Origin: Elusimicrobia bacterium RIFOXYA2_FULL_47_53
GTDB lineage: Bacteria; Elusimicrobiota; Endomicrobiia; Endomicrobiales; XYA2-FULL-47-53
Assembly (NCBI GenBank): GCA_001800315.1
Contig: MGVE01000017.1
Location: forward strand, 4,942 to 68,941
Direction of reading: 5' to 3'
DNA length: 64,000 nucleotides
Made by a program: the position numbers and the translations under genes. Shown here piece by piece: positions 28,673-64,000 of this stretch; positions within the stretch are counted from its first letter, which is position 1; every line of letters starts with the position of its first letter. Below the pieces are notes generated by a model. The model saw nothing but the letters and a program-made list of their open reading frames with translations, searched no databases and was not told the origin of the DNA.

Positions 28673-29227
28673 ATGGGAAAAAGTGCAGCAATCATCCTGC
28701 TTTTTTCTATGCTGGCGAACACACTGTCGCCGCGCAGTTTTCTTTTTGACGAAAACAGCGGCCTTGTCGCCGGAGCCTTAGGCGCGCAGACTATGGTCGT
28801 CAGCGTTCTTCGCTTCCCTTTTCATCCCATGAAGGCTGTAAAGGAACTCTACGATAAAAAAACCCCTCTTCCCTTTTCTCCGTCTAAAAACAGCGGCAAA
28901 CAGGGCCGCAGGACGGCCGGGGAATTTGAATATACGGTTTCGCTTGATAACCTGAAAGACAACAGGTTTGACAACACCTTCATTCTTGTAAATACTTTGG
29001 TTTCCTGCTCGCGTTCGCTTACTTTAACCGTCGGTAATATTAAGAATAATTCTCCCGGCGGGAATACTTTCGCGGCACTTTTGATATTCCTGATGTTGTT
29101 TGCTCTGCGCCCGAGAAGCTCAATAAACAGCGACAATATATTTCCGATAAAATATACAACTCTTAATCTCCGCCTCTTAACTGACGGCGGGGATTTTTTT
29201 ACTTACGGTACAGGGGAGATTTTATGA
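28673..29227 (+). CDS. Small membrane protein, paralog A (precedes giant ORF 1)
   Basis: ORF 28664..29227. ATG 28673 was chosen because 'MGKSAAIILLFSMLANTLSPR' aligns residue for residue with 'MKKALVLIILAAMVANFLVPR' of 47105. It has a second shared hydrophobic block, 'LLIFLMLFALRPRS'. Its stop overlaps the giant ORF start (ATGA). Confidence 0.6.
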   Translation: MGKSAAIILLFSMLANTLSPRSFLFDENSGLVAGALGAQTMVVSVLRFPFHPMKAVKELYDKKTPLPFSPSKNSGKQGRRTAGEFEYTVSLDNLKDNRFDNTFILVNTLVSCSRSLTLTVGNIKNNSPGGNTFAALLIFLMLFALRPRSSINSDNIFPIKYTTLNLRLLTDGGDFFTYGTGEIL

Positions 29228-32200
29228 AAACAACTAACTTTTCGTCGGAGAGCCTTCTGCGAATGCCGCTTGGCATTCTGTGGAAAATGCTTTTTTCGTG
29301 GATAAGAAAAAACGCGAAAAAAATTACCGCGGTAAATGTAATTATGGTTTTTTTGTCGTTTGAAATGATGTGGGTCAGCGGCTACGCGAGCACCATTAAG
29401 GAAATTCAGGACAAAAAAGTCTCCGAGCAGGCATTGGGCCGATGGGATAAGAAAGTTGAATTTAACGGTAAGTCAATTACTTACGCGCCAAACGGCGCGG
29501 CCAAGTCCGTAAAAGATAATAAGACGGGAATGACAGAGGATTTCATGGAAACTGACGGCAAGGTTTCCGTGATAATTAGCGATGCTCAGGGCAATGTATT
29601 ATCTCAGAAAGAAATGTCTAAACAGGATTTTGTTAATTATTTTAAGGCGCTGACATCGGGCGATTCTTCCAAACCCGATAAAGACGCCTCAAATGTTCAG
29701 TATGGAAAAGTTAAGGTAGAAGATAAATCAGCAAAGAAGTCCGATGGCCAGTATAATCTGGACAGCGGCGTTAAACAGGCGGGAACCGCGAAATCAAATG
29801 TCGGCGGGCAGGTGGATCTGGCGGCGCTTGCCGCTCAGTCGTGGCAGAAGGAATATTCCGCGGCCAGCCTTTCCGGGAAAAAACAGATGGTGGAACAGGT
29901 TGGTATAACCGAGGCGGAAGCTCAGAATTTCTCTCGTGAGACCGCCAAAAAAGTTCAGGCTCACCTCGGTTTTACCGATAAGAAACAGGATGAAAGCGGC
30001 ATAACGATAAAAGGCCTCGCTGATGTGCCCGAACAGATAGGCAGGTATGTAAATAAGGCGCTCGCGGGCATGGTTAATGTCGTAAAGAGCCTCGTTAAAG
30101 GAAAAGAGGGAAAAGAAGTTGAAGTCAGTATCGCGGATATCCAGGGCGCAGCGGAGAAATACGGCATCCGCCTTAAGAGTTCCAGAGGGACGGTCACTGA
30201 CCTGAAAGGTGTTGTCGCGGACGGGCCGGCGATAGCTCATTTGAACACCGGCGGCAAGACGGGAACTTTCGTTGTTGTTAAAAGCATTGACGATGACAAC
30301 GCTGCGATAATAAATTCGGATGGCAGTGAGTCAACCATTTCGGTTCAAGATTTTGAGGCCTCCTGGTCAGGGAAAATGATGTCGCAGAAATCTGACGGTC
30401 CGGAACTGGTAATAAGCGAGAAAAAAGAAACAAAAGGCAGGTTCTATAGTGAATTTTTCAGTTCAATAGGCAAGGTTTTCGGCGGCAGATCTGGTGATTT
30501 GAAAAACGCTGTCCGCGGTTCTCCTTCCGACACAGAGCCCGTGGTAGCTGGCGCTGTCGGCGGACAGATTTCAGAGGGAACGAAAACTGGACAGGTGTCG
30601 GATCTGAAAGGCAAACCAGGACAAGTCCAATCCTCAGCAAACGACCAGAGTGTAGTAGGTCAGACCATCAGTCAGATTGAAAAATTTCTCAACGATTTTG
30701 TTAATGCCAGCCCTGCCGAAAAAGCCAAAATGGCTGCCTCTCTTGGAGTTCCTGTCAGCCAGCTTGCCAATATAACCGCGGAAACTGCCTCAAAAATAAT
30801 TGATTATCTTAAATCTCAGGGTGAGGGTATACTCAACTGCGCTGTGCAGTCGCTGTTCAATCTCTTTGATTCTTCCGGGAAAAGCTACAGCAAGAGCGAT
30901 GTGGCCGCAAAAGCGATTCTCGTTGATATTATAACAGGAAATGTTACAAAACAGGCGGAGCAGGGCGGTCCGTTGCGCCTGAGTATGAATGCCATACAGA
31001 AGACGGCCGGAGCGTACGGCGTTGACATGACCGGCTACAGTACGGATATGGCAGGACTCAAAGACGCGGTTGCCAATGGCCGCGGAGCGGTTGCATACAT
31101 CAATACCCCCGATGGACAGGGCCATTTCGTTGTTGTCACAGGCGCGAAAGACGGGATGATCACCTACACCGATGCTGACGGCAAGAGCTACACGGTCAGC
31201 GAGTCGGATTTTCAGTCAAAGTGGTCCGGCCAGGTGCTTTCCCAGGAAAAGGTAAAGAGCCCGAATGCCGTAGAGCTTGGGTTCTCGGCGCTGAAACAAA
31301 CTATGGGCGCTTCTATGCCTCCATCAAATACTTATCCCACAGGCGCAGGCGAGTCAACTCCGGATCCCGATGCCTCAGCCTCGGCCCCGGCTCCTGACGA
31401 GGAATCTGGTGATAGTGACAGAGGTGATGGAAGGTCGGGGATTTATGGATTTGGTGGCGACGATGATTCCGCCGCAAGAGCTGCTGAGGAAGCCAGGAAG
31501 GCAGCTGAAGATGCGAGAAAGGCCGCTGAGGAAGCTCAACGGAAGGCCGAGGAGGCCCGTAAAAAGGCTGAAGAAGCGCGCAAAGCAGCTGTTGATAGAG
31601 AAGAGCAGAAAGCGCTTGATAAGGCTGCCGATGAAGCGGAAAGGGCCGCCAAAGAAGCAATTAGAAAAGCAGATGAGCTGGCTAAGATTGCTGATAAAAC
31701 AAAAACATCCGCTGAAAGAAAATCTGTTGAGTCTGTTGCGAATTCGCAGCCGTCCGTCGGTGCCGATTCTCAGGATACGGCTGATGTCTCAGTAACAGGT
31801 AAGATGGTAAGAAGCGCTGAAAATGCCGCGGTTGCTCCCCAGCAGGCTCGCGGGACAATGTCGGACATAATTAAAAAATCATTCGGTTTAAGCGGTACTG
31901 AGGATAAGGGCGAGTCAAATGCGCGTTCAAATATTACCGGTGAGACTGCAGATACGGCTTCCGGACTTCAGGATATAGCTAATCTAAGAACTTCCGTGGG
32001 GGCTGTGCCGTCTGACGAAGTGCCGTCTGCGGCATCTAGAGTAGTTGGTCCCAGATCAATAGGAACAGAATCCTCGGATCAGGAGGAAACAGTTGATTCA
32101 GGGCGCAGCGCCATACAGGAAGGTTTGAGGAATGTTTTTGGGGATATTCCCGCACCTGTTGAAAGCGCGGTTTCCGCTTTAGAGGGAACTTTTAATGTTA

Positions 32201-35200
32201 GAAGCATTTTGGGTAGTTATCGTAAAGATGTCTCCGGAGATGAAAGCGATTCAAGCGGAAGTTCTTCGCAGTATGACTCGGTGTCAGGAAAAACCGCCAT
32301 TCAGACAGCAGGATTAGGTAATTCCGGTTCCTCTCCCGTTGGTAGACAAGTTAGGAGCGAAGCTTCTGCCGGATTGTCGGAATCGGAATATGATAGTGGA
32401 TATAGCGGCAGAAGAGTTCTTTCAAGGACGGATGAGTCAGATATGTCCTACGGCCGCCGGATAGTTGACAGTTCCAGCGGCGATGAATCCTTTACTATGG
32501 CTATGGCCGGTTTTGGCGCCAAAAGATTTGGCGCTCAGGATGAATTATCCGAAGAGGATCAGGCTCTTGCTGAAGAGTCTGAAAAAATGGTTGACGATAT
32601 TGAAACCAAACTGAAAAACTATCAGAAAGCAAGCGCTAAGGAAAAAGCAAAGATAGCCGAAGAGCTGGGTGTAAAGCCTGAAGATCTGATGAATTTGACG
32701 GATCTGGAGATAAAAAGAATTGTTCATAATCTCAGGTCTATGGGCGGCGATCTGGCGAGAAATTATCAAAAAGCTAAGGATGAAAATACTTCCGGAAGTT
32801 TTTCGCTTGATGCTTTGCAAAACAGGGGATTTGATACTTCTCGTACAACGGCTGAAAAAACCAATGATTTATTCAAAGATATTATAACCGGCAAGGGTGT
32901 CAGGAACTCTTCGGAAAACAAAGATGGTCAAAATGAACCGCAATTTGATGAGTTTGGCGGCGCTTCTTATCAGTCTGCGGGCATGCGCGGGCAGAGTGAC
33001 GGCTACAACAAAAGTGTTTATGGTAGCGGGACCACTCTTCAGGAGTTGGGTGCCCGCGGCGCGAGTGCGCTGAATGATTTATTCCACCAGGGTTATAGTC
33101 TTTTTGAGGCCGCCGGGATGCTTGCCCAGGCAAAAGAGTTTTCTAAACTGCCTCAGGAAGTGCAGGACCAGTATAATCAGGCAGCTGATAAGATGACCGA
33201 TGAAATTGAAGAATGGTTATACGATTTTGAATCTGCCGATGCTGCCGGTAAAGAGAAAATGGCCAAAAAATTCGGCCTTACGGTTGACGAGGTAAAAAAC
33301 CTTACAGCTGATGGAATAGATCAGTTTGTTGGAATGCTCAGGATGCAGCGCGGCATGGCGCTGGCATTTAGTCCGGGCCTGAATAAACTATTTTCAGCTT
33401 TGCAGGGAAACGGCAAGAAATTTGACATGGCAAAGGTCGCCGGAGAGGCATTTTTGACCAATTTCCTTGTCGGCGGTTCGCGGGCATCAATTAAGAATGA
33501 GTCAAACGATGTGACAGGTGAAAATTATTCTACGAGAATTCCGCCCAGCCTCACCCTTGACCTGTACAGCGTGCGCAAAGTAGCAGCAAAATATGGCGTT
33601 GAAATGGGTATGGCATACAGGACCGATCTGCAGGGGCTTAAAGACGCCCTGGCCAACGGAACGGAGGTGGAAGTATACTGGTCACAGTATGGAAATAATA
33701 ACCTTGTCAAACTAATAGCGATAGATGGCGGACAGGTAGCTTTCATGACTGAGAGCGGCCAGGTTATGAATATTCCGGAAAAAGACTTCATATATAACTG
33801 GAAAGACGGCCTGGTTTTTACAAATGAGGAAATAACCAGAGGAGTAGCTGTCAGTGAAACTGAACTGAAGGGCCTTGGAATAAATAACTTTTCAGGAATC
33901 AAAAAAGAAAAAAGCAAAAAGGGTTTCCTTGGCGCAATAATAGGAGTTGTGGCCATTGTGGCCATGGTAGTAATATCCATATATTGCCCTCCTGCTGGTG
34001 CCGCTATAGGTACAGCTGCGGCCGGTGCGGGTACCGGTACGGCAGCTGCCGTAGGAACAACTGCTGCAATTGGAACATCATTGACTGCGACAGGTGTGGG
34101 TATGATGTCAGCCGGCGCGGCCATGATAGGTACGGGTATAGGAGCAACGATTGCAGGAGTAGGTATGGTTGCTGCCGGTGCTGTTGTTGCCGCAGCTGGT
34201 GCCATTGCCACAGCTGCTGCAGCGATAGGTGCGGCATTTTCCGCTGCTGGAGCTGCTGTCAGTAGCGCCATGGGACTTACTGGCGTCGCAGGTTCATTTG
34301 TTTCTGGATTTGTCTCAGGCGCTCTCTCGTCAATGGCCATGAGTATGGGTACTCAGCTGATAATGACCGGCTCAATAGATTTCGGCCAGGTTTTAAAATC
34401 AGGGCTAACTGGCGGTTTGACGGCAGGCATAATGCAGGGAATAAATGCAGGATTTGATGTGGCCATGGGCAACCCAATAGGATCAGCTGGTGGTGGCCTT
34501 TCAGGATTTGTAGAGAATTCGTTGGGTTTTGGAAGTTCTGCCGGCGGTTTTGCAAGTAATTTGATGCAGGGCGCAATAAGCGCGACGGTGGATTATGGTA
34601 TAAATGGTGGAAATTTTGTTGATAAACTTTCAAATCTAGGAATGAGTATCGGTAGCGGATTATTGGGTTTTGCTTCGGAAACATTAGGACTGGGTAAGGT
34701 ATTTAATAATATTGGGGCGTTGGCAGGTGAAATAGTTTCCAATGCGGTTAAAGGAGCTGTAGGAGCGTTGGTAGATTATGCCATAAACGGCGGCAATCTT
34801 GCTGAAAGCCTTACCAGGTCAATTGTCGGGTCAGCAATGAATGGCTTGGTTGGAGTAAATGGCTTAGGGCTTACTGGACAGCCCGCAAGCTCATTTATGG
34901 GAGATTTCTTTGGTACTGCTATCGTGAACTTTGTCACTGATACCGTTACAGCTTTGGTAAGCGGGAATGAATACGATTTTATGGACACTCTAACAAATAG
35001 CTTGTTGTCCGGATTTACAACAGCTACGACCAATTATGTGCTGGAGAAGCTATTTACTGAGAACGAAATTAAATTTGCGGATAAATATGGCTTTATTAAT
35101 GACCCCACGAGAACAGCTGACTACGCATCTGTATCGTTTGTTATGTCAGCTTTATCAAGTTTGACGGGTATAGCGGTAAAAAGCGCTCTCGGAATAAAAA

Positions 35201-38200
35201 TCCAGGATGGCGCAATCAATAGCGCCATTGCGGCAGCTTTTGAATCAGCCTTTAAGCCCTATTTGATTGGTATGTATAACAGAGGTGAGGCAGCTGTTTT
35301 GAGCGCTCAGGCAAGAGCAAATGGCTGGGGAGATAAAGACAGCGGCTTCTATATGGCTCCCCAGGATGACATAGAATTATTGCGTGACATTGACGGCAAT
35401 ATTAATATTATTAACGGTACCGCTCGGTACGGTTATGAAGATGGTGTGCATTATAATGTTTCTTATAAAGAAGGTAATTATTCTGAAATCCGTGTTAATG
35501 ATAAAGAGAAGGGTATTGTTAACGAATTGGCTGTCACAGGCCCTCAGAATGGCCTTGCTCAGGGTATTCTTGGCATTGATCCCCAAGGCATAATTAAGGG
35601 CAAAATGGTATTTGGACAGATTTACTATTGGAATGGTGGAACCGGAGTTGGCAGACTTTCTGATTCAAGCCTTTTTAAGGATGGCAAGTATTCTTACACC
35701 CTGGGTGACGGCAGGCTGGGCGTTGATATTACTCAAGAGCAGGGTAAATATGTACTGAACTTTAGTGTTGATAATGCTGCGGTGGATATGTATGGTTCAT
35801 CAATCGCGGGCACTGTTTTTACTTCGGATAACAAAAAAGAAGTCTATGTTCTTGATAAGAACGGCGAGCTTGTTGATGTAAAGGCAGGTGGTGTAACAAA
35901 AATGTCGGTAGGCGATGTTACCGTGGAATTTGGTTTTGATGATCGCGGCTATTTTAAAGGCGATATAGTTTCCAAAACAACTTTCACGAATATTGATGGG
36001 GTTACTAATACCTATACCCTGGACAGAGCGCTTATGCAGAAGGGTAAGACCACGATTTATTCTGCCAAGGGAGAAGATGGTAAGTCGTATCTCCTGGAAT
36101 TTAATGCCGATTTTGAGCTTGTGATTAAAGATGTTTTAAAAGTAAATCAGTCTTCTGCTAAAAATGGTGTTAAAGATGTTATAGAAGTGGATAAGAATAC
36201 CGGCGAGATTACAGACAGTTATCAGATGTTGTTAAAACAGCAGGATATGAGCGAAGCGACGAAGGCGATGTTCGGAAATAAATCCGAATTAAGAATAACG
36301 AGTTCGTTGATGAAAAATTTTGATGAAACGGCGGAGTCAAGTAAGTTCGCTTTCGTAAAAGGCGCTGATGGAAAAGAGTATGTGGTCGGATTGGATGATG
36401 AAAATAATATCAAAGATATTTTGACGGGCGAAGTGGCAAATAAAAATGGTGATTGTTTAATAACTTATAGTTCTGATGAAAACGGTGTTTTGGAAAGCAC
36501 AAAAACTCGGCTGATGAATAGTGACACGCTTAACCTTGAGGATAACGAGCGTGATGCCCTTTTTGGGGATAAAGACTTAATTGATGTGACAACGCAAAAA
36601 ACTGGTAGTGGCAAAGATCTTAAGATGTATGGCGAGATAAAAGACAAAGAAGGTAATGTTATTTATGTTTTGGATTTTGGGAGTGATTATGTGGTTGACG
36701 GGCTTCTCAGGAATAACACTACTCTTAATAACGGTATTCAGAAGATAAATTATACTTTTGACAGCAGTGGAAAAGTTAATAAGAGCGAGACTTGGACTGT
36801 CGCCGGTTCCGATTACGACGCCGATCAACTGAAGTTTACGGAAAATGCCGACGGGCGGAGCGTTGTTCAGGCAAGAGACAAGGATGGCAAAATTAAAGCC
36901 ATTGATTATGTAGATTATAAGGATGGGGAGTATCTTGATGGAGGGGCAATAGACAAGGACGATGAGTTTGTGCAATATAGGGGTGAAAATGGTACGGCAT
37001 TATATGCTTCTTGGGACGGCAAGTCCGAGCTTCTTTCAAGTTTTGGCGATGGCAGAAAGACAGCAGAGCTGGTAATAGGCGGGAAAACATTAAAAGTTGA
37101 GATAACTAAAGACGGAAAAGGTTTGCGTCTTACTGACGGGCCTGCAAAGATTGGCCTTCCCGGCGGCAAAGACCTGGTGATTGATGAGGTAATTAAATTA
37201 GATACCGAGAGAGGAGACCTTACCTGCACCGGCAAGTTGAATGTCGGAGCAGGCGAATCGGCTGAATTTGACAAGGAACATGTTTTTGCTGAGAAAAATT
37301 CTCAGGGTGGGGATCCGGGTCCGGATAAGTCGAAAACTAAGGCCAATACTGAAGTAGGACTGCAAATAGACAAAGATGGAAAAGTAACTATAACCGGTGA
37401 AAAAGGCGAATCATCGCTTGATGTCAGTTTCAGTTTTGAAGCTGCCCTTGGCGGTACGGACAGTATTGAAAGAAATATGCGCCTTGAAGGTTTTGCAAAA
37501 GGGACGCAGATTAACTTTAGATCTGATTATAGCGCCTCTGTTTCAGGCACCGGCTATAACAGCCTGCTCGTGACTGCCGGATCTTCAATAGTCATTCAGA
37601 GAGAAGGCGGCATAATGCAGAACCTTGACGGCCTTGCTAAAGGTTCGTATATCGTAAAGGGTGTAAACGCGGATGGCGCTAAAGTGACACACGAGGAGCG
37701 CGCCGCGTCATCTGTCGGGCAAATCAAGTCAATTGATACAATTCAAAAAGGTTCCCAGACTACGACAGTTGAAACAAAAATTGGAAGTGTTGAAAACGGG
37801 AAAGTAACGGATTATACCTATACTTACAATGGGGTTGCTTCTTCTGAAGACGCTCAGTTAGATGGTGATAGAGGAACACTTATTGTTTTTGAAGACATGG
37901 GTGGTGTTATTTTAGGCAGGGATGCTAATGGCATAACTACGCTTTCAGGAATTGTTATGTCCGGCACCCTGAAGTCTGGTGTAGTTGATGGGAGAGATTA
38001 CGCGTATTCATTTAATATTTCAGGGCATAAAGGGGATTATCGGCTTGACACACAACTTTTTGTTGGCGGTGTGCCTTACAATCCGGTTGACCTGATTTCC
38101 AGGCAGGGTAATGTGTCGCGTAGTTTGTATTTTGGCGGCAAGGAAGGTAAATACTCCGCGCTTGCAATAGATTTTAAAGATGGCGATATCGTTGGTATTC

Positions 38201-47051: not shown

Positions 47052-47104
47052 TGTACCGGGTACGGATTTGAGAATTGTTTGAAACTCTTGTTCAATTTTA
47101 TTCT

Positions 47105-47628: not shown

Positions 47629-47658
47629 TTGCTTAATTCTTACTTTTGAGAGGGTAAA

Positions 47659-56600: not shown

Positions 56601-59600
56601 TTTCCTTGCTTTTGTCGTGCTAAGCAATTTGATATGGATCTTTCCTACGGTATTAGCTTTGCCCGCCGTGGTGCCTATTCAGGTTGCTCTAATATTAATT
56701 ACTGCGTTCGGGATTTTATATAAAGACAGGATAGGTGACCCGTTCTCGTATGCCGTAAATATGGCAAAAGCAGAAGGAAGGGAGCTTTCGTTAGTGGGTA
56801 GGGTTGTAACATATATACCTCTGTTTTTTCAAGGTATTTTTGAGATCGTTGTAACAACACTTGTTTCTTTGCTGCTGGTTGTCATTAGTCCGCTTATTAC
56901 TTTCGCGATGTATTTGTACGAAAAAAGCGGAAAAAGCCCGTCGTGGACACCTTCCTCGGTTGTTTCAACAATGGAACTTAAAAAACCTATTTCCAGAAAA
57001 GAATTTGCCGATATGTCCGCGCGGCTTGAACTTGAAGGTCTTTCAAAGGATGAGATTCAAATGTTGAGGGATTCATTAAGTAAGGAAGGTAACGAGAAAT
57101 CAGAGATAATTTCGTACATATTGCAAAGCGCGCAAAATCAGGGGTTGGATATTAAAGCGATGCAAAAAGATATTAAGAGGATAGCCGGCGGAATAAGCCA
57201 AAAGGAATACAAAGATGTGCTTTTGTTTAAAGCGGTTAAGATTGGTATTTTTGCCGTTCTGACTTTCGGTGTGTTTATATGGCTTGGCGTAACCCCGGTA
57301 ACGGCATTTTCGGTTTATGGCATTTTGCCACTTTCATTTTCTTTGCTTGGGGGTATGCTGGCAATGAGATGGGCTGGACAGGTAAGAGCGTATTCTTCTT
57401 CCAGTACTCCGCTTTGGAAAAAAGGAGTAGCTTCAGCGGTTTTGGTTTCCATAATGGCTGGTAGTGTAGCCGGAGTTATGACGGCAAGGTCTGTGCCCAC
57501 TTACGATAAAAGCATGATTGAAAGAGCTTTGCCGCTGCTTTCAGAGAGCCCGGAAAGATATGGGTATAGCGAAGAGGTAAAAAAAGCCTTTGACCAAGTG
57601 AAGGAAAGCCAGGCCAGGGCAAATGCTTATGTGCCGAAAAGTACCGTGCCGGGCATGGCGCTCTCCGGGAAGATTAGCGATGTAGCGGCAGCTCAGGTAC
57701 CGCTGACAAAAGTTGAGGCCAAACCCGGGGTAGTAATGACCAAGCCTGCCGCCAGTGTTGATGTGGTCCTTCCGCCTATAAATGCCAAGGCCGGAAGAAT
57801 CAATACTGTTAGGGAAGTTTTTAGTGCTGATCTTTTGAAATTCATGAAGTATGCTAAAGTGAGAGCTGAAAGAAAGCCTCTCTCGGAAATATCGCTTCCT
57901 GATGAAGAAATAAAAAGAGGCGGCGGTGGCGAGTTGATTAAGACAGGCGCTGCGCTTGGTTTTAAAAGAACTCAAAAAAGTATTGCGTGGGCTGCCGTTC
58001 AAACCGTGGCAGCTTCGTTCTCGTCTTATATTGGTATTGGAATAAACCTGATTTCTAAGGTGGAAGCTATTGCTGTTATATGGGAGTACGGCGATAAATA
58101 TCCATGGCTTTCTCTGACCGGCGATATCTCGTCAACTGTTTTCTGGTCTGAATCGCGGTTGTATGCCGACAGGAGTATGGAGGATTTTGCCAGAATATAC
58201 AGGTGGGATGATATTGCCGCCATGTGGAAAGCTGGGGTGGCGGAAGATATCCCGGGTTATGAACGATATGAATACCTTCAGACAGCCGTTGTGACATTGC
58301 ATTACGCCGGACTGCCTGTTACCGAACAAAATGTGAATAAGTTTCTGGGCCATTTTACAAAAGAAAATATAAATAAATTGGTCGCAAAATATCCTGCTTT
58401 GGAGAACTCATTAAGGCCGTATCAACTGCTTCCGGAAAAAGCCAGGACAGGCATTAAACTTTTCGGTATACTGAACCTGCTTCTTCCTCCGGGTATGGGC
58501 GTCCAGTTGCCGACTGATCTGCCGGTAATTACTTTAGCGCAGGTGGCACACCAGGTTATTTCCGGGGACTCGGGCACCGTGGAGGTATTGACGGCGCTGG
58601 CAATAGCAAATGATATGACGCTTGAGTCGCTGCTTGATAGAATGGGTTTTGGGTATGTAAACGAGGCTATTGATAAGAAATGGGCTGTCAATGAAAAGGT
58701 TTTTGCCGAGTATGTAAACAGGTTCCAATCAGATATGAAGATGCAGGGTCTGGAAAAACCCGAAGATTTCATGAAACCTGAATCCGTCACATTGTCTGCA
58801 CATATGGCGAATTATCAGATGGTTGAGGCTGTTTGGGACACTCTTGTAAATGAAGGTTTGCGTTCGGGCCGTCCGTCTAACAACGAAATAAGGGAAATAG
58901 GCGAAAAACTGAATAATAATATGGTTGAGATGTGGGATATTTTCAGTGTCTGGGAAAGAGGGGGTAAGGAAAAGTATCCAAAAATATTTAAGCAGGCAAT
59001 GATCTCTAAGGGTGTTGCTGATCAATATGCGATGAACATGTATCTGGCGATGGAGTTAGCAGGCAAGGATAAGACGGTTCAGGAAAAGGCAAAGCAAGAT
59101 TATCTTATGCTGTTGAAAAAACTTCAGTTTGATCCCGCGCTTGCTGTTTATAATCAATATGGTTTTGTTGAAGAAGGTATTGTTAATGATTTGATGTTTA
59201 TGAATGAAGTGGGCCGTAGAAAGCTTTCTTATGACCCGCGGAGTGACGAGGCGAATAATAAGGATTTGATTGAGAATATAAATAAAACTATAAATGGGCA
59301 GCGGTTTGAGGCCAAACAGCTTACGGCCTTGTTGTGGCTGGCTTCTCTTGATGAGGAGCTTAGGGCGAATGGCTTTGTTCATACTGATGAAAATGGCAAT
59401 AAAAAATACGCGGAATATGAGGTTAAAACTTCTGACAGGGGGAATGTGCTGATAAAAGTTACGCCCTTAAATGCCGCTAAGACATATTTGGAATTGTATG
59501 GTCAGGGTGTGAGGTCTTATCCGGATATTCCATGGTCAAAGGTTGTGGGAAGCTATCTCATGCTTTTTTACCACGGTCATTTTGGAAAAGTTAGTGACCT

Positions 59601-62600
59601 GATGAATCATTCCAAGGATGATTTTTCCGATGCGCAAAAATGGTTTACTCAGGGCTATTTAATGCAAGAGTATTCTATGTCTAAAGAAGAACACGCGAAG
59701 TTAAGGTCGGAGGTGAATAGTGCTTTTGATGAATACCAGAGACTTGTGTCAAAGGATAAGTCGGCTTTGAATCAGCGGGACAGAGATTCTATCGCTGATT
59801 ATGAAAATAAAGAACTGACCCTCGCCAAAAAGGATCTTATTGAAGTCGTTATGAAGGACAAATATACAAAGATTGGTATCACGGATGAAGAAGAAATAGA
59901 AATGATGCACAGGAGGTCCGAAGATAAGGAGAATCTTTTCGGTGTGTATACATTTATCTCTAATATGATTATTTCGGCCAGGGTAAATAATATTGATGCT
60001 GAGGAAAATGAGCTTATCAGGGTTTTTATGAAAGCCTATAATTTCGGCACAAAAAGTATGGATTTTTCTGAAAAGAATATGGTCCCATGGCTGGATGTGT
60101 CACTTTTTATCGTAATAAACTATTTTAAGACAGATTTTGCCGCGCAGTTCAATGAGAAGGATATCAGGTCGCCTGACTCTAAGATAAAAATATTGTTTGA
60201 AAAACTCAATGCTCCGATGCGTTATTCCAATAGGTGGCTTTTTAATAAGTATGACCCGGCCGGCAGTGGGGAAGCTCCCGAAATTACGGATAAACAGATT
60301 GAGCTGATTGCCCGTAAGATGTATGAGAGGATGGGCTATGTTGACCAGCAGATTGATATTCTTATTTCTATATTAAATACTGACCAGGCCGGAATAATAA
60401 AACTATATACCGCGTATATGTTTGTAGGTACCCTGCTGGAAGACTATGAGAAGAACAGAGTTAAGCAGATTGATGCGGATAAGGACCCTGTTAAAGACCT
60501 CGGCGAAGTTGACAAAGCGTCAAAACTGGCGGAGATGTATTTTAAATTATACCTGAAAGGCAAGGGTGGAGACTATCAAAACATACCCTGGTGGGATATC
60601 ACCAGGTTCATGCTTCAGGCGGAGATACTGGCAGGATTTAAATCGGAGGAAGAAGTTTTTGAGTATTATAAGAAAAGCTTTGGGTATGTGAATGCCTGGC
60701 TTGCGGATAAAAATTTTAAGGTGCCGGAAGATTTTGTTATTACGGTTGTAAAAAAGCCATATGGGGATTTGAATTACCCTGAAAGTAAAATAGATGTTAT
60801 TGTGAGAGAAACCTTGCCGCAGCTGAAACTATACACGGCATATATGTTCGCGGCTAAAATCATTGAGAGCCTTGATTATAATGGCGTTAAAGTTGACCCC
60901 CAGGAAGTTATCGCGGACTTTATGGAACTTTACAAATATGGCATTGCCGAGCAGAAAGACAAGCTGGGTGCTATACCATGGTTTGATTTTGCGAGTTATG
61001 CCGTTGTTGAATATCATGTTAATAAAGCCGACAAAGGCTGGAAAAATGTGAAGGAATATATTAACTCGGATTATTATAAGGGAACGCTTCCGTTAGTTCA
61101 GCGGTACATTACTGACTCCACGAAGCTTCCTGATGGCTTTGCGTACGAGAATGCCTTTAGAACCGAGCTGGTCATAAAGAATAAAAACACCGATCCGCGA
61201 AACGACCTTAGTAAGGAAGAAAACAGAAAGCAGTTATTGGAGATAAATGCCGTTCTCGGAGATCAAAGCGATGCTGTTAAGAATTTTAACGGTTACCTCG
61301 TCTTGGCCTCGCTTAAATTAAAGTATGAGGCAAGGTTTGGAGCGATAGCTGACAGGGATGAAAGGGCATGGTTGGAAACTGCCGCGTCCAGGCTTTTAAA
61401 CGCGTGGAAGACCTATCCCGGCAAGTATCCGAATCTGCCGATGATGAAGTCCGGTGTGTTGGAAAGCATAGTAATGGATTCCATGGTTTTCAGCGATCCT
61501 CTTGAAATAGAAAGAGCTCTTGGTTTGGATGAAGCAAATAGGCTAATGAGTGCGGATAATAATCTAGGGGTTTCTCAGGCCGTAAAAGATGACATCGCGA
61601 AAGAATTTACTCTTAGAACCAAAGTTGAGATAAAAGATGAGGCGGTCAAGGAGTATATGGCGGTGCTGACGGCTGTCAATCTTCTGAAAGTAAACTTTAT
61701 GGATGTAAGTAACGAAAATATTAATAAAGTGCTGGAAACGCGCTTGGCTATAAGGAATTTAAGCGCAAAATATCCCAGGCTTAAAATTAGCGAAAAGAGG
61801 GGTAATGCCGAGACTTGGACAATCTTTGCCATTGAGAACGGAATTGCTGTCGGCGACCTTGAAACAAAATATTTTGAGGTTATTTCCGCTAATTTTGACA
61901 AAATAAAGAGTTCTTTTACAGATGATGAAATGGCGATAAAGTTAAATAAAGGCTTGATTTCAGCTTTGATTGACCGTCGTACCGCGGCGGCGGAGTTCGG
62001 CGCCGAAGAGGACATGCTCGCGGATCCCGATATTGATGCTGACGATATAGTAGTAGAATTGGGAAGGTATCAGGTATCTAAAAGTATCGCATTGGGGCAG
62101 GATGTTGCTGATTTAGCTGTTTTCTTTGAGCTTTCAGGCAAGGTTAAGGCTGCGAACAAACCCCAGCTTGATGCGATGACAAATTCTTATAATAATGTTT
62201 TATCAAAACTGGATCTGAAGAATAGAGTGGAATCCAGTGATGATCTTAAGGAACTGATATCATATATTGTGCTTACGGAAAAAATTCAGGGAAAGTGTGA
62301 TTCGTTTGCTTCATCCATTGTCGCGTTAAAAAATGCTGTTTATGGCCCGGCAGCAACTCCTGAAATACGGGAAGCTTTCAGCCAATTTAAAGGCTTTGAT
62401 GAGCTTAGTGCCGGTATAGTTAAGAACCTGACAGCGATAAACAATAGCACGCCGGTCCTTGGAAAAATTGAATCCGTGCGAAAAGATAATGAAAGGTTGG
62501 CGGCATCTCTTGAATTTTCCTGGGCATTGTGGATGACTTTAAAAAATGTCCCTATCGGTGCTCTTGAGGAAATTATTGGCAATATTGAGTATGTTGAGGA

Positions 62601-64000
62601 AAAATACAGAGATGTAATCGGATTTATACCTTCGGATGAATCCGGTGTTACATTTACAGACGCTCTTGGAGTATATATCAGGGGCGATTACTGGAAGCCA
62701 ATGTATTGGCTTAACGCGGAGTATAAAAAAATACAGCCTGAATGGTGGGTAAATAATATTGTTAAAGAGAGTTATCAGAGGCTTTTTGATAAAGTTTTGG
62801 ACGACTCCGATCCTGATGGGAATGACGCGAAACTGCTGAAAGCATTTTATAAGAAGTATGAGCGTAAGCGGCCGTTGGGAGACGGAAAGGGTTTATTTGA
62901 CGAAATTGTAGATGACCTGGCCAACAACGGAGCCTATGAGTTAAACAAATCAGGCGAATTGGTGAGAGCTGACAAAAATACTTATAAGTTGCGAATTGAA
63001 TTGGCTCAGGAGCTTTACAATGCGAAAAACGAGATTTTAAATGATATTCAAAAGCAAAGGCGTTCAGATACTTTTATTAGGGAGGATGTGTCCGCGGCTT
63101 CAAAGTTGCTTAATGAGTTGCTGGATTCTCCTTCCCAGATGAAGGCGGAAGCCGCAAATATTGAAAATATACTTAATAGAAATCTTTATATGAATAAGAA
63201 AATGGCTTTGTTGATTTCGGTTGCGATGGCCGGATTGCTGTATGTTTTATGGAAAGTGTTGGATTTCTTTGGTAGGTCGCGCCCGCTGCCGGCGTCTTCG
63301 GTAGGCTTAGGATTTACAAAGGATGAAGTTCTTTCCAGAGTTGCAATGGGGAGCGCCGAAGGGTCGCAGGTTCACAATCTTGCGGTATCCTTGGTTGACC
63401 GTATGTTCGCTGACAGCGATAAGAGGACAGTTCTTAGTAAGGGAGAAGCGCGTTTAAGACATTCTGAAAGCTTAGACTTGCTGTCTGCGGCTATTTCATC
63501 AAATACAGATCTGCTGAAGAGCGTAGGAGTAAACAAAAACAATATTGAGGTTCTGGTATCGGATCAAATGCTGACAAAAGAAAATTCGCTCAGCTTTGGT
63601 TTAGTTCAGGTGCGAGATGGGAAGCTCTATTTTATTGTTTCCGAGATATTCTTAAACAGGCTGACTGACAGCGATAAAGAGATGCGTATAGGTCAATTTG
63701 TCAATTATTCTCTTAGAGAGTACGCTGCTATCAATGCGAAGAATTCGGATGAATATAACAAATTTGTCTATTCCCTTGATTCAAAGGTCGATGAGAAGGA
63801 TAGGACAAGGAGTGCTGTGAATTACAGGAAATATGCCATGGCAGGCACTAATGAAGATTTGATAGATATATTGAGTTTTGCAAAAAATAATATCCCCATT
63901 GATATAACTTATAAAAAAGCTGTTGGTGGCTTGCTTGCTGCGAATAAAGATGTCAAGGGCAAAAAAGCGGCGATAAAAGCGCTACTTACGGTTGCTAAAC
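47659..64000 (+). CDS. Giant mosaic membrane protein 2, 5' partial (at least 5,447 codons, runs off the window)
   Basis: Not in the ORF track because it has no stop in the window. Hand translation of frame 1 from ATG 47659 (GAGAGGG RBS) to 64000 found no stop codon. Only short ORFs are listed in other frames over these 16.3 kb. Confidence 0.85.
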   Translation, partial: MNIQKLKRKLMEGVARPVWGTLNAPVPVLLETASEYFSFIRAVAIVTVTCFIVSSIAGPAIAQVSQVAEENRKYAQVFDDFVLPYTAARITGASYSASPRVVIQIQDLHCHGEVQRNINRVLSLVNEKYPVSKIYLEGAYGSVDTSWLNAISDKEMRQAVVESLVDQGKLTGVEYFSASGNSVPVMGLEDKDIYNANLLRLGRILDSQADVDKALSGIELELARLKARYYNPKQKALDILSAKYRKEEVKTNDFYRELKKLGDKNGLDIYEYRNMTAFLGLMELEKELNYKRISRQLQEFIITLKQRLPYDAYKVLLEKMNDFSRLDELYVYLIKLDRDFKLGLSNTFPNLSTFFAYIDASQKVNPVNLVNEERRFVRELQKKLSANATEKEVVFIADFYSTLAEYYTNRLTAEDYEYYLKNEREFKVLWSKYSDSYYLSGLEPFNAILNDYYVANIERNRRFVKNILSASDTPAGTEASPYVNSVSETLKSLKNATEIDIVVTGGFHTLGLSELLAEKNISYLVITPNVTKDTKYASDVYNALAKQQFKVLLGEERPSTSAQIQGQTTDRFAKNTPQKGALALPVISGDEWDAGYIHSATLAQGGLGALVKANSDPNSVVGQINREILKDGRIKMSYNGENEYSLRDGSYGKIIQKYTVTPEGNVEIVGSSEFSSKPQAFGLTSKTQLISEVYISMLSVGVSAVPFMKLAEYTLAFQNMSVKALDNLVGKSRSYDGKTFKIVNDSRLEPASQKALAALKTKLLERRTELRQITEKFAPENTNGRMPVTINVVEGDVLPIDDDSLAFATVKLDNGTLVLYITEGLLKSISRIPAGDKKERIIKSLLQWELSEYIYLNVADNALETKDGLGRVVSLTYRDFYNKEMKEAQVKGDKWEFAELFAFADRERAKLQKLVYEEAKRVTLVPSTRNSIDKISDPVEKRQAYAAAIRSAVRAWTISYLNEYKKERAGDLVALVGEITPSSFYRNAESDEYVFAVEENARALSLDDLIAGIREKLVNDQLLGLGIAKGSQEEKDFFRLEARIPEAFYSISNEFNNLMPVKAVLTKLEGPQDALTAAELKNTDLARSIQVKVVMNELSDKANKIKADLVQKVLPAQIYRNIPTASILDPLINRLNISQSFAKFFTVILAPGWETIALYFAFNAFGFGWAVLGFAFAHTIVDWVVRTNQDGLAKAFSINNLKSDISKFSVRLLLAGAFVVPFEFFSPIAAGVISFITHAVYNYAVLSRGWSLPLASLTTPAFDLNKENRKLRIYRFLDEKCGIRTDKLNSKEVFWKDGVRTNLYTWIARRRLLPESTLTVAWGAALSDAAYIKSLDKSKLRDFAAQQGIDITNSRQPWADVTNLYQEKSRFFSLLRSELFGSKNMTFDELKFIPVRVNDKGEFEIIEYLLETTDKNGNDKTWVSREFGLTPSKYYYDKKLMKVSIRQYIDGYSAVKQELDEKNLFYEEELDRLIETGEISNIGRFGNIIKPAVIAVGTFFSTMFLSGTSYAAQVIQKGDSLWKIAKNQLINSGISSPRNAQISEMVDKIKEVNPAINPNLLRIGQEINVDVAEKVQPSVQPLVEAVANTPQAAETAAQAVTNVSANAAPAADVVSQALPQVADAASKLADFYQAVEPGARQGAEIAYPVVNAVQNAVPAVNTAVPSVNMFDSLVTSMQSTILDAFTYIQSIGQSYPSIAATVGIIAIAVGVVFLGYKAFLRNKAVETLVFRTKDEGLRSKNLTWLYESNRPIALNTAAKDYTLNNVREIIKINRQSKNGVEGLSGGKIKVDYSDSVLKQYSIYELSRLVEEIIRPQLSTGSKIRLSVINDLKRAPGVSISLLYRVTNGAFGSVSLNLAGHPEARLLYEQAGIFFDSGLIVPLLAIGKELYGASYEFPEPKDVGQEESMKEQESVLAKSLETARRVAAQEKKIEKPNEMDALASEVVTYMHEKARSGILLPWPVFSFLYKRGFFKKSAEKFRYAAEGQRRFTMPELLVSGRVAKLASVRLAAMGKGDAETKKKELEIERAKAEPDAAIINELERSIDMIEANGKIEALRKELDSINADIKKQAKQGVDNPLKGNARKGAIEFEIERSEFNLLNMKYQVQSEIRNEFIAKYQALAKKEVGDMDFSSYDKLFNNIVDKINIVVKAAGNDKDIADLSEMLGLPLEVVVGAIEGHRIGSDKLYLVNRLIKELNRYGSKYSSALEMLNYYKYDVEARDFVAGLVKNADTIIPDSFVKSNPAYFYEWFRISLQAFMGLGIYVLPALIFYGTAFVFMPIPIIFGVIFGLITYYVAWAPAHKFSLHVTGVFVKWFGRGVRGHERIKYIDRYIDDKYTADVPLRVSNVISKISASEDDFDVAIKYLRQTLERDIALLKRHPNNLEFNIIIRSDTNPYKSARNKEIVDYEMKVMRELIEEYREELPNLNIGYFNMGAREWVNNTNGKLGQGGFGMKAGGIALQMQLFEEGYTKSRIYVDESHEHSMRDNPVFCAVVATDLAKMLGHEKSHDTRDKAARGELNESIHRDILAGNDLKLTKDYGYRDTLSLLSDDKNIVLEVGETDKMLAIMLHPANKHIVMTTPHIVVTPPYIDGVPQSSWWWKLMKVSRDIHNEFNARLMASIYGNGSAFFGKGVVRQGKYYQNVFKRETLSIARILSHDWQESIFSVYTEALYGSLNYSVEILQKSEDEMLLQVNLNDDTRFVKIVFDRKKGQVEVYEEDYAGGDGKFTLAKVFLLKDICVSTEFNDLAGILKLSPEAAKDFKELQSKEVLRVYDLVSSGELKKVKDEKDKKEFISKKLSEFENLRGVSNLSAAEKEKAVENYKNDLLAAFDKKHILDKKIGAHMAELAERAEIKFNGDARKIAEYMLRRGNAYQNQLLAELKSAELARNIPIIKARMIDEFGHLMTIDHVSKIVTNSYGNSYSMGERDQLNPLTYLMRDARWLLGDIQMARTELPYKAFLPPAHQTHTEGIMRRLLGNSFFLAFVVLSNLIWIFPTVLALPAVVPIQVALILITAFGILYKDRIGDPFSYAVNMAKAEGRELSLVGRVVTYIPLFFQGIFEIVVTTLVSLLLVVISPLITFAMYLYEKSGKSPSWTPSSVVSTMELKKPISRKEFADMSARLELEGLSKDEIQMLRDSLSKEGNEKSEIISYILQSAQNQGLDIKAMQKDIKRIAGGISQKEYKDVLLFKAVKIGIFAVLTFGVFIWLGVTPVTAFSVYGILPLSFSLLGGMLAMRWAGQVRAYSSSSTPLWKKGVASAVLVSIMAGSVAGVMTARSVPTYDKSMIERALPLLSESPERYGYSEEVKKAFDQVKESQARANAYVPKSTVPGMALSGKISDVAAAQVPLTKVEAKPGVVMTKPAASVDVVLPPINAKAGRINTVREVFSADLLKFMKYAKVRAERKPLSEISLPDEEIKRGGGGELIKTGAALGFKRTQKSIAWAAVQTVAASFSSYIGIGINLISKVEAIAVIWEYGDKYPWLSLTGDISSTVFWSESRLYADRSMEDFARIYRWDDIAAMWKAGVAEDIPGYERYEYLQTAVVTLHYAGLPVTEQNVNKFLGHFTKENINKLVAKYPALENSLRPYQLLPEKARTGIKLFGILNLLLPPGMGVQLPTDLPVITLAQVAHQVISGDSGTVEVLTALAIANDMTLESLLDRMGFGYVNEAIDKKWAVNEKVFAEYVNRFQSDMKMQGLEKPEDFMKPESVTLSAHMANYQMVEAVWDTLVNEGLRSGRPSNNEIREIGEKLNNNMVEMWDIFSVWERGGKEKYPKIFKQAMISKGVADQYAMNMYLAMELAGKDKTVQEKAKQDYLMLLKKLQFDPALAVYNQYGFVEEGIVNDLMFMNEVGRRKLSYDPRSDEANNKDLIENINKTINGQRFEAKQLTALLWLASLDEELRANGFVHTDENGNKKYAEYEVKTSDRGNVLIKVTPLNAAKTYLELYGQGVRSYPDIPWSKVVGSYLMLFYHGHFGKVSDLMNHSKDDFSDAQKWFTQGYLMQEYSMSKEEHAKLRSEVNSAFDEYQRLVSKDKSALNQRDRDSIADYENKELTLAKKDLIEVVMKDKYTKIGITDEEEIEMMHRRSEDKENLFGVYTFISNMIISARVNNIDAEENELIRVFMKAYNFGTKSMDFSEKNMVPWLDVSLFIVINYFKTDFAAQFNEKDIRSPDSKIKILFEKLNAPMRYSNRWLFNKYDPAGSGEAPEITDKQIELIARKMYERMGYVDQQIDILISILNTDQAGIIKLYTAYMFVGTLLEDYEKNRVKQIDADKDPVKDLGEVDKASKLAEMYFKLYLKGKGGDYQNIPWWDITRFMLQAEILAGFKSEEEVFEYYKKSFGYVNAWLADKNFKVPEDFVITVVKKPYGDLNYPESKIDVIVRETLPQLKLYTAYMFAAKIIESLDYNGVKVDPQEVIADFMELYKYGIAEQKDKLGAIPWFDFASYAVVEYHVNKADKGWKNVKEYINSDYYKGTLPLVQRYITDSTKLPDGFAYENAFRTELVIKNKNTDPRNDLSKEENRKQLLEINAVLGDQSDAVKNFNGYLVLASLKLKYEARFGAIADRDERAWLETAASRLLNAWKTYPGKYPNLPMMKSGVLESIVMDSMVFSDPLEIERALGLDEANRLMSADNNLGVSQAVKDDIAKEFTLRTKVEIKDEAVKEYMAVLTAVNLLKVNFMDVSNENINKVLETRLAIRNLSAKYPRLKISEKRGNAETWTIFAIENGIAVGDLETKYFEVISANFDKIKSSFTDDEMAIKLNKGLISALIDRRTAAAEFGAEEDMLADPDIDADDIVVELGRYQVSKSIALGQDVADLAVFFELSGKVKAANKPQLDAMTNSYNNVLSKLDLKNRVESSDDLKELISYIVLTEKIQGKCDSFASSIVALKNAVYGPAATPEIREAFSQFKGFDELSAGIVKNLTAINNSTPVLGKIESVRKDNERLAASLEFSWALWMTLKNVPIGALEEIIGNIEYVEEKYRDVIGFIPSDESGVTFTDALGVYIRGDYWKPMYWLNAEYKKIQPEWWVNNIVKESYQRLFDKVLDDSDPDGNDAKLLKAFYKKYERKRPLGDGKGLFDEIVDDLANNGAYELNKSGELVRADKNTYKLRIELAQELYNAKNEILNDIQKQRRSDTFIREDVSAASKLLNELLDSPSQMKAEAANIENILNRNLYMNKKMALLISVAMAGLLYVLWKVLDFFGRSRPLPASSVGLGFTKDEVLSRVAMGSAEGSQVHNLAVSLVDRMFADSDKRTVLSKGEARLRHSESLDLLSAAISSNTDLLKSVGVNKNNIEVLVSDQMLTKENSLSFGLVQVRDGKLYFIVSEIFLNRLTDSDKEMRIGQFVNYSLREYAAINAKNSDEYNKFVYSLDSKVDEKDRTRSAVNYRKYAMAGTNEDLIDILSFAKNNIPIDITYKKAVGGLLAANKDVKGKKAAIKALLTVAK
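47950..49260 (+). other. N-terminal domain with Tiki/ChaN/TraB-superfamily-like motifs (tentative)
   Basis: 'VVIQIQDLHCHGEVQRNINRVLSLVNEKYPVSKIYLEGAYG' ... 'IDIVVTGGFHTLGLSELLAEKNISYLVI'. This follows the GxxH...E...GxxH pattern. Recognised by eye only. Confidence 0.3.
52195..52371 (+). other. LysM peptidoglycan-binding domain
   Basis: 'QVIQKGDSLWKIAKNQLINSGISSPRNAQISEMVDKIKEVNPAINPNLLRIGQEINVDV'. It is bracketed by TM segments 52120-52194 and 52750-52806. Confidence 0.75.
54640..56510 (+). other. OpgH / cyclic-glucan-synthase-like family-2 glycosyltransferase domain with a large insertion
   Basis: 'FNIIIRSDTNP', 'GMKAGGIAL' (55021-), 'LLSDD' (DD 55309-55314), 'GNGSAFFGKGVVR', 'ILSHDWQE' (SHD 55627-55635) and 'RDARWLLGDIQ' (56473-56505). 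TM clusters lie at 54415-54560, 56578-56920 and 57235-57480. Confidence 0.65.
59440..61480 (+). repeat. Tandem divergent ~130-170 aa helical repeats within giant protein 2
   Basis: Recurrent '(E/K)LY..G......(I/V)PW.D' cores at about 59470, 60020, 60530, 60910 and 61390. 'KLYTAYMF' occurs at 60403 and 60826. Confidence 0.6.

Follow-up and report, generated by a model that had tools for sequence, protein, structure and literature searches.

Two consecutive giant genes in an Elusimicrobiota genome with C39 peptidase and predicted SecA-like ATPase modules

The window analysed here is a stretch of 64,000 nucleotides from contig MGVE01000017.1 (positions 4,942 to 68,941, forward strand) of Elusimicrobia bacterium RIFOXYA2_FULL_47_53, assembly GCA_001800315.1. 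Its right part is occupied by two consecutive giant open reading frames (ORFs), ORF1 and ORF2, and a gene for a small membrane protein lies upstream of each. ORF1 and ORF2 are genuine, intact chromosomal genes.

The giant genes and their products

ORF1 (29224..46872, + strand) is a single frame of 5,882 amino acids (aa) with an ATG start and a lone terminal stop, as seen in the ORF list and its translation. The translated frame of ORF2 is stop-free from ATG 47659 to base 64000, a run of 5,447 codons. This frame is open only from 47650, indicating that ATG 47659 is the earliest usable start, and a ribosome-binding-like GAGAGGG is found just upstream of it. ORF2 was absent from the ORF track used for the initial annotation because that list omits frames leaving the window. 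By base composition, the odds of such stop-free runs are about 1e-168 for ORF1 and 1e-159 for ORF2. On longer public contigs carrying the identical locus (ENA ERZ909572 k127_130515, 109.6 kb; NCBI GCA_001800475.1 MGVL01000023.1, 114.6 kb), gene calling gave 5,882 aa for ORF1 and 8,798 aa for ORF2, or 8,788 aa for the latter if an alternative start is used. A length of 8,798 aa places the end of ORF2 about 10.06 kb past the window, at window-equivalent position 74055.

A look-up of the 179-aa protein whose gene separates the giants gave 19 public contigs. Over 37075-57614, a 20.5-kb region that spans the ORF1-ORF2 junction, five of the six fetched loci were base-identical to the window, and the sixth differed by two single-nucleotide polymorphisms and an N-gap. 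Different samples and assemblers (ENA MEGAHIT, NCBI, Logan) underlie the five identical loci. ORF1 was recorded on eight contigs, the longest of 390 kb. The in-frame codon usage of each 3-kb tile correlated with that of the housekeeping genes of the window (r 0.54-0.83), and the off-frames gave at most 0.25. DNA repeats able to collapse an assembly were essentially lacking across 29-64 kb. The five base-identical assemblies and the gene-like codon usage in all tiles argue against mis-assembly, and mis-assembly or pseudogene decay is very unlikely. The two consecutive giant ORFs of the initial annotation, the second of them open-ended, were thus borne out. The GC skew within both giant ORFs was strongly positive (0.14-0.27 in 30000-64000, with 0.02-0.09 in the housekeeping region), and their GC content at third codon positions (GC3), 0.41-0.45, was below the 0.55 of housekeeping genes.

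Both ORFs are largely non-repetitive mosaics with many hydrophobic segments; hydropathy and repeat scans agreed on this with the initial annotation, which had described hydrophobic clusters in both products. The features of ORF1 are as follows.

29320..29397 (+): N-terminal hydrophobic anchor, aa 33-58 (hydropathy scans)
29836..30438 (+): repeat 1, aa 205-405, helical motif and degenerate C39-like domain (internal repeat BLAST, alignment)
30679..31308 (+): repeat 2, aa 486-695, helical motif and C39 peptidase domain (Pfam PF03412, alignment)
33127..33852 (+): repeat 3, aa 1302-1543, degenerate C39-like domain (internal repeat BLAST, alignment)
33913..35196 (+): Gly/Ala-rich hydrophobic cluster 1, aa 1564-1991, with several candidate membrane helices (hydropathy)
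35521..39663 (+): variable middle region, aa 2100-3480, without a recognisable family (no Pfam or PDB match)
39664..41073 (+): hydrophobic cluster 2, aa 3481-3950, kept in all long relatives (comparison, hydropathy)
42337..44493 (+): predicted SecA-like superfamily 2 (SF2) ATPase module, aa 4372-5090 (motifs and fold comparison; weak Pfam DEAD/ResIII)

The C39 peptidase claimed in the initial annotation was confirmed by Pfam, with PF03412 (Peptidase_C39) matching aa 586-676 at 70.6 bits (cut-off 22, E 1.5e-19). The three C39-like domains belong to internal repeats, each pairing a short helical motif with one such domain, that were found by a tiled BLAST search and missed by whole-protein self-BLAST. 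Cys and His are the catalytic residues of C39 peptidases. Repeat 2 keeps both, in NCAV and GHFVV, which align with the same motifs in the relatives P0003 and L087, and repeats 1 and 3 have lost both. The C39 unit of repeat 2 shares 42% identity with P0003, and the top NCBIfam matches were peptidase-containing ATP-binding cassette (ABC) exporters. An extra copy of the short helical motif occurs at aa 1105-1174. Between the C39 repeats, aa 700-1100 (about 31320-32520) form a long acidic, Ser-rich and probably disordered stretch that includes a charged helical repeat of the AEEARKAAE type. A DUF637 match in cluster 1 (25.8 bits, E 1e-5) fell just under the cut-off of 26.6; this lead was dropped as below cut-off, in low-complexity sequence and not reproduced in relatives.

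The C-terminal half of ORF1 carries the ATPase module, whose motifs (LRxGQxDT, NPTAAGKT, LVLDEAHLYMKNVMDLII, LVLDEAH, SRQFQD, MTGTPP, N.I.GLGVDY, Q.KGRPSRSGEYGEF and GRPSRSGEYGEF) are invariant in four long relatives. Pfam gave only sub-threshold matches to this module, namely DEAD (E 5.7e-5), ResIII and Helicase_C. A profile search of the PDB returned P-loop matches to reverse gyrase helicase and UvsW at E 0.2-0.4, and SecA was absent from both the phmmer and the profile matches in that database. The tail that follows the ATPase, to aa 5882, had no Pfam match.

A model of the module was built from a six-sequence alignment, with a predicted local distance difference test (pLDDT) of 63 and a predicted template-modelling score (pTM) of 0.32; the AlphaFold single-sequence model reached a pLDDT of only 38. 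When the former was compared with the PDB by Foldseek, each of the 18 best matches was a SecA or SecA2 structure (E 3.9e-11 to 4.8e-5). Weaker matches came from other SF2 ATPases (RapA, DinG, RIG-I, reverse gyrase), the best at 1.3e-4, with two more SecA entries intermixed. Between motifs II and III lies an insertion of about 170 aa (DEAH at aa ~4523, MTGTPP at aa ~4700), which is where SecA carries its preprotein-binding domain, and long helices follow the second nucleotide-binding domain in the model of pLDDT 63. The Foldseek ranking, the insertion, the resemblance of several motif variants to those of SecA and the membrane-protein setting together make SecA-like the best, though tentative, reading of the modelled ATPase. 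The SecA-like motor of the initial annotation was supported by the fold comparison and the conserved motifs; no sequence profile called it SecA.

The part of ORF2 within the window contains the following features.

47659..64000 (+), leaving the window: ORF2, first 5,447 of 8,798 codons (translation, gene calls, codon usage)
aa 33-64 (+): hydrophobic anchor (hydropathy)
47836..49338 (+): N-terminal 'head' domain, aa ~60-560 (13 homologues, alignment)
52198..52365 (+): LysM domain, aa 1514-1569, between two hydrophobic segments (Pfam PF01476)
54409..57495 (+): candidate OpgH-like region, aa 2251-3279 (motifs, sub-threshold NCBIfam MdoH)
59830..61116 (+): divergent tandem repeat, aa 4058-4486, with a period of about 150 aa (tiled repeat search)

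Hydrophobic segments of ORF2 were located at aa ~1144-1247, 1487-1512, 1691-1722, 2251-2302, 2975-3089, 3187-3279 and 5179-5205. The head domain has 13 homologues, mostly contig-truncated, in metagenome-assembled genomes (MAGs) of Endomicrobiales, Endomicrobia and Endomicrobiaceae at 36-45% identity; one homologue from Omnitrophota shares 26% identity. In the alignment, D107, H109, Q115, E137, G138, G505, G506 and H508 are invariant. A profile of the head domain had no match in PDB or Pfam. Its D-x-H ... E-G ... GG-x-H pattern may resemble that of TraB/ChaN/Tiki-type domains, which no search confirmed. In relatives, the head is followed by HD/RelA-SpoT, cytidylate kinase or TIM barrel modules. 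These differing modules indicate that the design of the ORF2 family is a conserved head with lineage-variable modules behind it.

The LysM domain named in the initial annotation scored 23.2 bits against PF01476, over the cut-off of 20.9 (E 6.6e-5), and LysM-bearing NCBIfam families matched the same stretch. The OpgH-like region consists of two to three helices, about 680 soluble residues and about six helices. MdoH was the sole NCBIfam family touching this tile (E 0.062, 11.7 bits, cut-off 829), and its match sits at the expected position, RDxRW plus helix. Pfam GT2 gave no match to the region even at E 10. A word-indexed protein search with aa 2240-3290 returned only a 100%-identical fragment, from an index that appears to miss giant proteins. 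An OpgH-like glycosyltransferase in ORF2 is kept as a lead whose chances are about even. The rest of ORF2 within the window had no match in Pfam, NCBIfam or PDB, and five further tiles of the giant proteins found nothing in PDB sequence searches. A related-locus search with ORF2 aa 4248-5447, aimed at sequence past the window, gave no match among genome or metagenome contigs.

Relatives, small genes and surroundings

When ORF1 aa 4300-5499 were searched exhaustively by HMMER against 1.84 billion representative proteins, five relatives of the ATPase region were returned, none of which is a canonical SecA. Two are short fragments, and the other three are huge proteins.

P0001: JGI protein of 6,073 aa
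P0002 (MCX5716635.1): 3,055 aa, partial, from Candidatus Omnitrophica
P0003 (MBN1822685.1): 7,221 aa, from Endomicrobiales

A word-indexed search with ORF1 aa 4200-5200 returned nothing, self included, so that this same index again appears to miss giant proteins. Scanning metagenomes with the ATPase alignment turned up four loci. P0003 is collinear with ORF1 in the helical motif with C39, part of the middle region, hydrophobic cluster 2 and the ATPase. The ORF1-like protein of locus L087 has at least 4,828 aa, its N-terminus being lost at the contig start. It shares with ORF1 a C39 domain (52% identity), a similar hydrophobic cluster 1 and, at 31% identity, 2,106 residues that cover ORF1 aa 3492-5461; its middle region is much shorter. 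A second C39 domain is found near the C-terminus of the L087 protein and likewise of P0003. The comparisons with P0003 and L087 indicate that the conserved core of the family is hydrophobic cluster 2 with the ATPase and the tail, and that the middle is variable. From N- to C-terminus, the family layout is C39 domain(s), a hydrophobic cluster, the variable middle, a conserved hydrophobic cluster, the predicted SecA-like SF2 ATPase and a conserved C-terminal stretch. Judged from the database sequences, the ORF1 family appears to be very rare, with members in Endomicrobiales and Omnitrophota.

Small membrane-protein genes and regulatory signals accompany the giants.

28664..29227 (+): s187, small membrane-protein gene, 187 aa, with a 4-nt overlap with the ORF1 start (ORF list)
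47075..47614 (+): s179, small membrane-protein gene, 179 aa, or 169 aa from ATG 47105 (gene calls)
21298..21774 (-): s158, possible distant third member, upstream of a 610-aa secreted-looking protein (weak similarity)
47023..47051 (+): perfect sigma-70 consensus TTGACA-17-TATAAT upstream of s179 (consensus match only)
47594..47624 (+): terminator-like hairpin, 13-bp stem and T run, 35 nt before the ORF2 ATG (sequence scan)

The genes s187 and s179 are paralogous (26% identity, E 3e-10), and s158 weakly resembles the small protein of L087 (E 1e-3). Neither s187 nor s158 had a Pfam match. Small proteins of this kind form a family of about 160-215 aa without a Pfam match, encoded directly upstream of giant or large genes. 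Their N-terminus is hydrophobic, as is a helix at the C-terminus, behind which stands an (L)RPRS-like motif, and their genes sometimes overlap the downstream start codon. Further members lie in L087 (15775-16425), L093 (9371-9955) and L098 (4906-5469).

The gene order at L087 is an ORF1-like gene, a 331-aa ORF, an s179 homologue (E 3e-19) and an ORF2 homologue, which is 44% identical over 549 aa and leaves the locus. Homologues of s179 are also located directly upstream of the head-domain genes in L093 and L098, and in L094 and L097 small unannotated ORFs occupy the same place and overlap the downstream start. On this comparison, the ORF1-ORF2 adjacency recurs at least once and is not obligatory. 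The absence of ORF1-like genes upstream in L093, L094 and L097 indicates that the stable unit is the small gene with the head-domain gene. The promoter consensus and the hairpin suggest that ORF2 may rely on read-through or attenuation for its expression; L087 showed no equivalent hairpin. In L098, from an Endomicrobiales MAG, positions 1-4621 upstream of the pair of small gene and head-domain gene encode the C-terminal part (1,539 aa) of a further large protein, which contains a GH77 (4-alpha-glucanotransferase) domain and a short similarity to ORF2 aa 707-862 (E 2.7e-4).

The host, a groundwater bacterium, was placed by its Lon protease, which shares 78% identity with an Elusimicrobiota MAG, 70% with an uncultured Endomicrobia MAG and about 60% with other Elusimicrobia; matches from other phyla rank below these. 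The identities indicate an Endomicrobiales-related Elusimicrobiota and not a member of the Omnitrophota. The pointer to Omnitrophota in the initial annotation was corrected in this respect, relatives of both giants being found in both phyla.

The left part of the window is ordinary chromosome, with trigger factor (tig), ClpP, ClpX, Lon, a class-V aminotransferase, SerA and an ABC-2 transporter. An ordinary efflux operon at 12191-17964 encodes a TetR regulator, an outer-membrane efflux protein and an AcrB-type resistance-nodulation-division pump (853 bits). On the minus strand, 18430-24746 encodes three secreted-looking proteins of 283, 610 and 949 aa with YD-like patterns by eye, with the possible s158 gene interleaved; none of the three has a Pfam match or similarity to either giant. 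The protein at 25471-27669 resembles an outer-membrane beta-barrel in its N-terminal half and consists of tetratricopeptide repeats in its C-terminal half. A stand-alone response-regulator receiver domain is encoded at 27841-28209, shortly upstream of the ORF1 cassette.

Proposed role and rival explanations

The giant proteins of Omnitrophota are reported to have N-terminal C39 domains, a divergent SecA_DEAD without scaffold and wing, and many membrane helices (bioRxiv 10.1101/2023.11.21.568195). ORF1 likewise has numerous predicted transmembrane regions, a divergent ATPase that is SecA-like by fold comparison, and N-terminal C39. Overall, the locus is read, with somewhat more confidence than doubt, as an Elusimicrobiota counterpart of these C39 and SecA-like giant membrane proteins.

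Both giants would reside in the inner membrane. Since the ATPase depends on ATP from the cytoplasm, LysM attaches to peptidoglycan and an OpgH-type enzyme draws on a cytoplasmic nucleotide sugar, both proteins must cross the inner membrane repeatedly. The cytoplasmic ATPase of ORF1 may act like SecA and push polypeptide through or beside the conserved hydrophobic cluster, the polypeptide being either the extracytoplasmic parts of ORF1 itself or a partner such as ORF2. The predicted catalytically intact C39 domain of repeat 2 would cut the giant or its cargo, and the two degenerate copies may serve for binding, as C39-like domains do in RTX exporters. ORF2 would be an envelope-anchored multi-enzyme, tethered to peptidoglycan via LysM and making or modifying glucan. 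The small proteins may be dedicated membrane partners or expression 'leaders'. From the module content, we infer an envelope-embedded export and processing function combined with cell-wall and glycan modules; the 'envelope-spanning machine' put forward in the initial annotation stays speculation.

A rather unlikely extension, offered tentatively, is that ORF1 aa ~3490-5460 could be a hitherto unrecognised, self-contained membrane translocase lineage that split from SecA, with the small proteins of the s179 family as its dedicated membrane partners. This putative lineage, of which fewer than ten members were found, the named ones from Elusimicrobiota and Omnitrophota, might insert or export huge proteins.

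Several results weigh against the proposed role. Pfam did not call SecA_DEAD (PF07517) in the ATPase module, and hhalign against E. coli SecA aligned the Walker A region alone, with a probability of 2.9%. The template-modelling scores of the SecA matches in Foldseek were 0.15-0.18, from a mediocre model, and such low scores mean that the relative domain placement in it is unreliable. About 80-90% of ORF1 and ORF2 matched nothing among the Pfam searches and PDB tiles, and the anatomy of ORF2 covers its first 5,447 of 8,798 codons. For the OpgH-like glycosyltransferase of the initial annotation, the collinear short motifs, the layout and the sub-threshold MdoH match were retained, but no sequence comparison was significant, neither Pfam nor BLASTP against E. 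coli OpgH (E 0.59), the PDB search or a shuffle test (z 0.69). Hydropathy scans do not fix membrane topology, and a naive count of helices can place LysM on the wrong side. At the gene level, a strong hairpin parts s179 from ORF2, and ORF1-like genes do not adjoin ORF2-like genes in L093, L094 and L097, indicating that the giants need not work together.

Other explanations of ORF1 concern its modules. One takes it as a contact-dependent or polymorphic-toxin exoprotein (CdiA, Rhs or MARTX-like), in which the C39-like domains free the payload and the Gly-rich region enters the target membrane. The near-threshold DUF637 ('possible hemagglutinin') match in that region (E 1e-5, 25.8 bits vs 26.6) would fit, but it is below the cut-off, of low complexity and not present in relatives. 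The secreted-looking proteins with YD-like patterns nearby (19415-24746) would fit as well, but they have no Pfam RHS match and are unlike the giants in sequence. For the Omnitrophota giants, predation has been put forward as a role (bioRxiv 10.1101/2023.11.21.568195). Neither TPS nor FHA domains were matched by Pfam in ORF1, and no TpsB, type VI secretion system, type I secretion ABC or membrane fusion protein, or immunity-like gene is located within the window. By sequence, the C39 region came closest in the PDB to a DUF4150 domain-containing protein (E 0.063), DUF4150 being a PAAR-like domain of type VI secretion effectors. The most conserved part of ORF1 is the ATPase, which needs cytoplasmic ATP, and its C-terminus is conserved with L087 and not polymorphic. 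A toxin is accordingly considered improbable. A similarly low probability is given to the ATPase being a DEAD/ResIII-type nucleic-acid helicase or translocase, for example in defence or DNA uptake. This is what the Pfam matches (DEAD at E 5.7e-5, ResIII, Helicase_C), the PDB profile matches to reverse gyrase helicase and UvsW (E 0.2-0.4) and the NCBI label of MCX5716635.1 ('DEAD/DEAH box helicase family protein') would suggest. However, all such matches are under curated cut-offs and reflect generic P-loop motifs only, whereas Foldseek ranked 18 SecA/SecA2 entries first, at up to 3.9e-11 vs 1.3e-4 for the best helicase. The ~170-aa insertion in the place where SecA has its preprotein-binding domain and the position of the module inside a many-pass membrane protein, beside a conserved hydrophobic cluster, also argue against a helicase.

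The remaining explanations concern the locus as a whole, and both are given only a very small probability. That the giant frames are artefacts, whether through chimerism or collapse in the assembly, decay of a pseudogene or fusion of several smaller genes by sequencing error, could be suspected from the short-read metagenome assembly that is their source, from the GC3 of 0.41-0.45 vs 0.55 in housekeeping genes and from the unusually positive GC skew. Against this stand the five independent assemblies identical over 20.5 kb at the junction, the eight contigs of up to 390 kb with ORF1, the near absence of DNA repeats, the stop-free chance of about 1e-160 and the in-frame codon usage in all tiles; relatives at 31-44% identity also remain collinear along thousands of residues. 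Peptidases, SF2 ATPases and hydrophobic segments occur together in the polyvalent proteins of mobile elements, a mix of modules that would suit a 'polyvalent' protein delivered with DNA as cargo of a phage, plasmid or integrative element. At L089, the small ORF behind the ORF1-like gene looks antirepressor-like by eye only. However, tblastn with ORF1 aa 3480-5460 found no match in 50,697 phage and 72,556 plasmid records. Housekeeping genes flank the locus here and at related loci, the codon usage resembles that of host genes, and the window contains no tRNAs, integrase-like features or repeat boundaries. The counterpart of the Omnitrophota giants, with its C39 and predicted SecA-like modules, remains the preferred reading.

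Comparison with known systems

Compared with SecA and SecA2, the ORF1 module has the same predicted two-lobe SF2 motor, the insertion between motifs II and III and the variants MTGTPP, GRPSRSGEYGEF and DEAHLYMKNVMDLIISG. In contrast to SecA, which is soluble and about 900 aa long, it lies at residue ~4,400 of a membrane protein. It also differs in having no significant sequence-profile match and low template-modelling scores. The C39 domains recall those of bacteriocin ABC exporters and the C39-like domain of the RTX exporter HlyB, in that one copy retains Cys/His and two do not. Unlike in these exporters, no ABC transporter domain is attached in ORF1, and its three copies follow an N-terminal membrane anchor and are possibly extracytoplasmic. 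No double-glycine leader substrate for the C39 of ORF1 was identified. ORF2 resembles OpgH (MdoH) in the order of helices, soluble part and helices, and collinear look-alike motifs were seen (FNIIIRSD/FDVYILSD, ILSHDWQES/ILSHDFVEA and LMRDARWLLGDIQ/LKRDRRWCHGNLM); the catalytic motifs of such enzymes are D, DxD and (Q/R)xxRW, in this order between transmembrane blocks. Homology would, however, need an insertion of about 240 aa, and no opgG partner gene is found near ORF2.

Adjacent giant genes are also known from Apilactobacillus kunkeei, where Giant1-5 are reported as adjacent surface-protein genes of 3,000-8,000 codons in a small genome (PMC12863079). The presence of several adjacent giant genes is common to both. 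The A. kunkeei giants are described as extracellular, whereas the ORFs at this locus encode predicted membrane proteins of many passes, which include an ATPase and hardly any repeats.

Proteins of more than 5,000 aa are reported to be enriched in Elusimicrobiota, without functional assignment (PMC11573180), and genes of at least 10,000 aa were noted in this phylum by West-Roberts et al. 2023 (bioRxiv 10.1101/2023.11.21.568195), where self-export and self-cleavage were proposed for the Omnitrophota giants. Nielsen and Lui 2026 (bioRxiv 10.64898/2026.06.07.730766) described long-protein architecture clusters with C39 or SecA_DEAD as the sole Pfam match. Term searches of these papers brought up no cassette of small gene and giant gene, no ORF2 head-domain family with variable modules and no description of the extreme rarity and divergence of this ATPase lineage.

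The C39 and predicted SecA-like architecture of Omnitrophota extends to Elusimicrobiota, and huge 'dark' membrane proteins account for much of some very small genomes in these two and other candidate phyla. The locus is a comparatively small and tractable example, with an ATPase module of about 700 aa and one C39 domain predicted to be intact. The 500-aa head domain and the recurring small gene could serve as search handles in other genomes. In common with the Omnitrophota giants, the two proteins have many predicted helices, mostly 'dark' sequence and an architecture that is kept while the sequence diverges; Omnitrophota MAGs are the source of one relative for ORF1 (MCX5716635.1) and of one for the ORF2 head domain. 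In contrast, the host belongs to Elusimicrobiota, the lengths of 5,882 and 8,798 aa are under the 10 or 30 kaa thresholds of those papers, Pfam finds no SecA_DEAD, and the locus showed no dockerin, GT1, methyltransferase or NUDIX module. The giants of this locus are real but belong to a kind already described, the poorly understood 'giant proteins' known from Omnitrophota.

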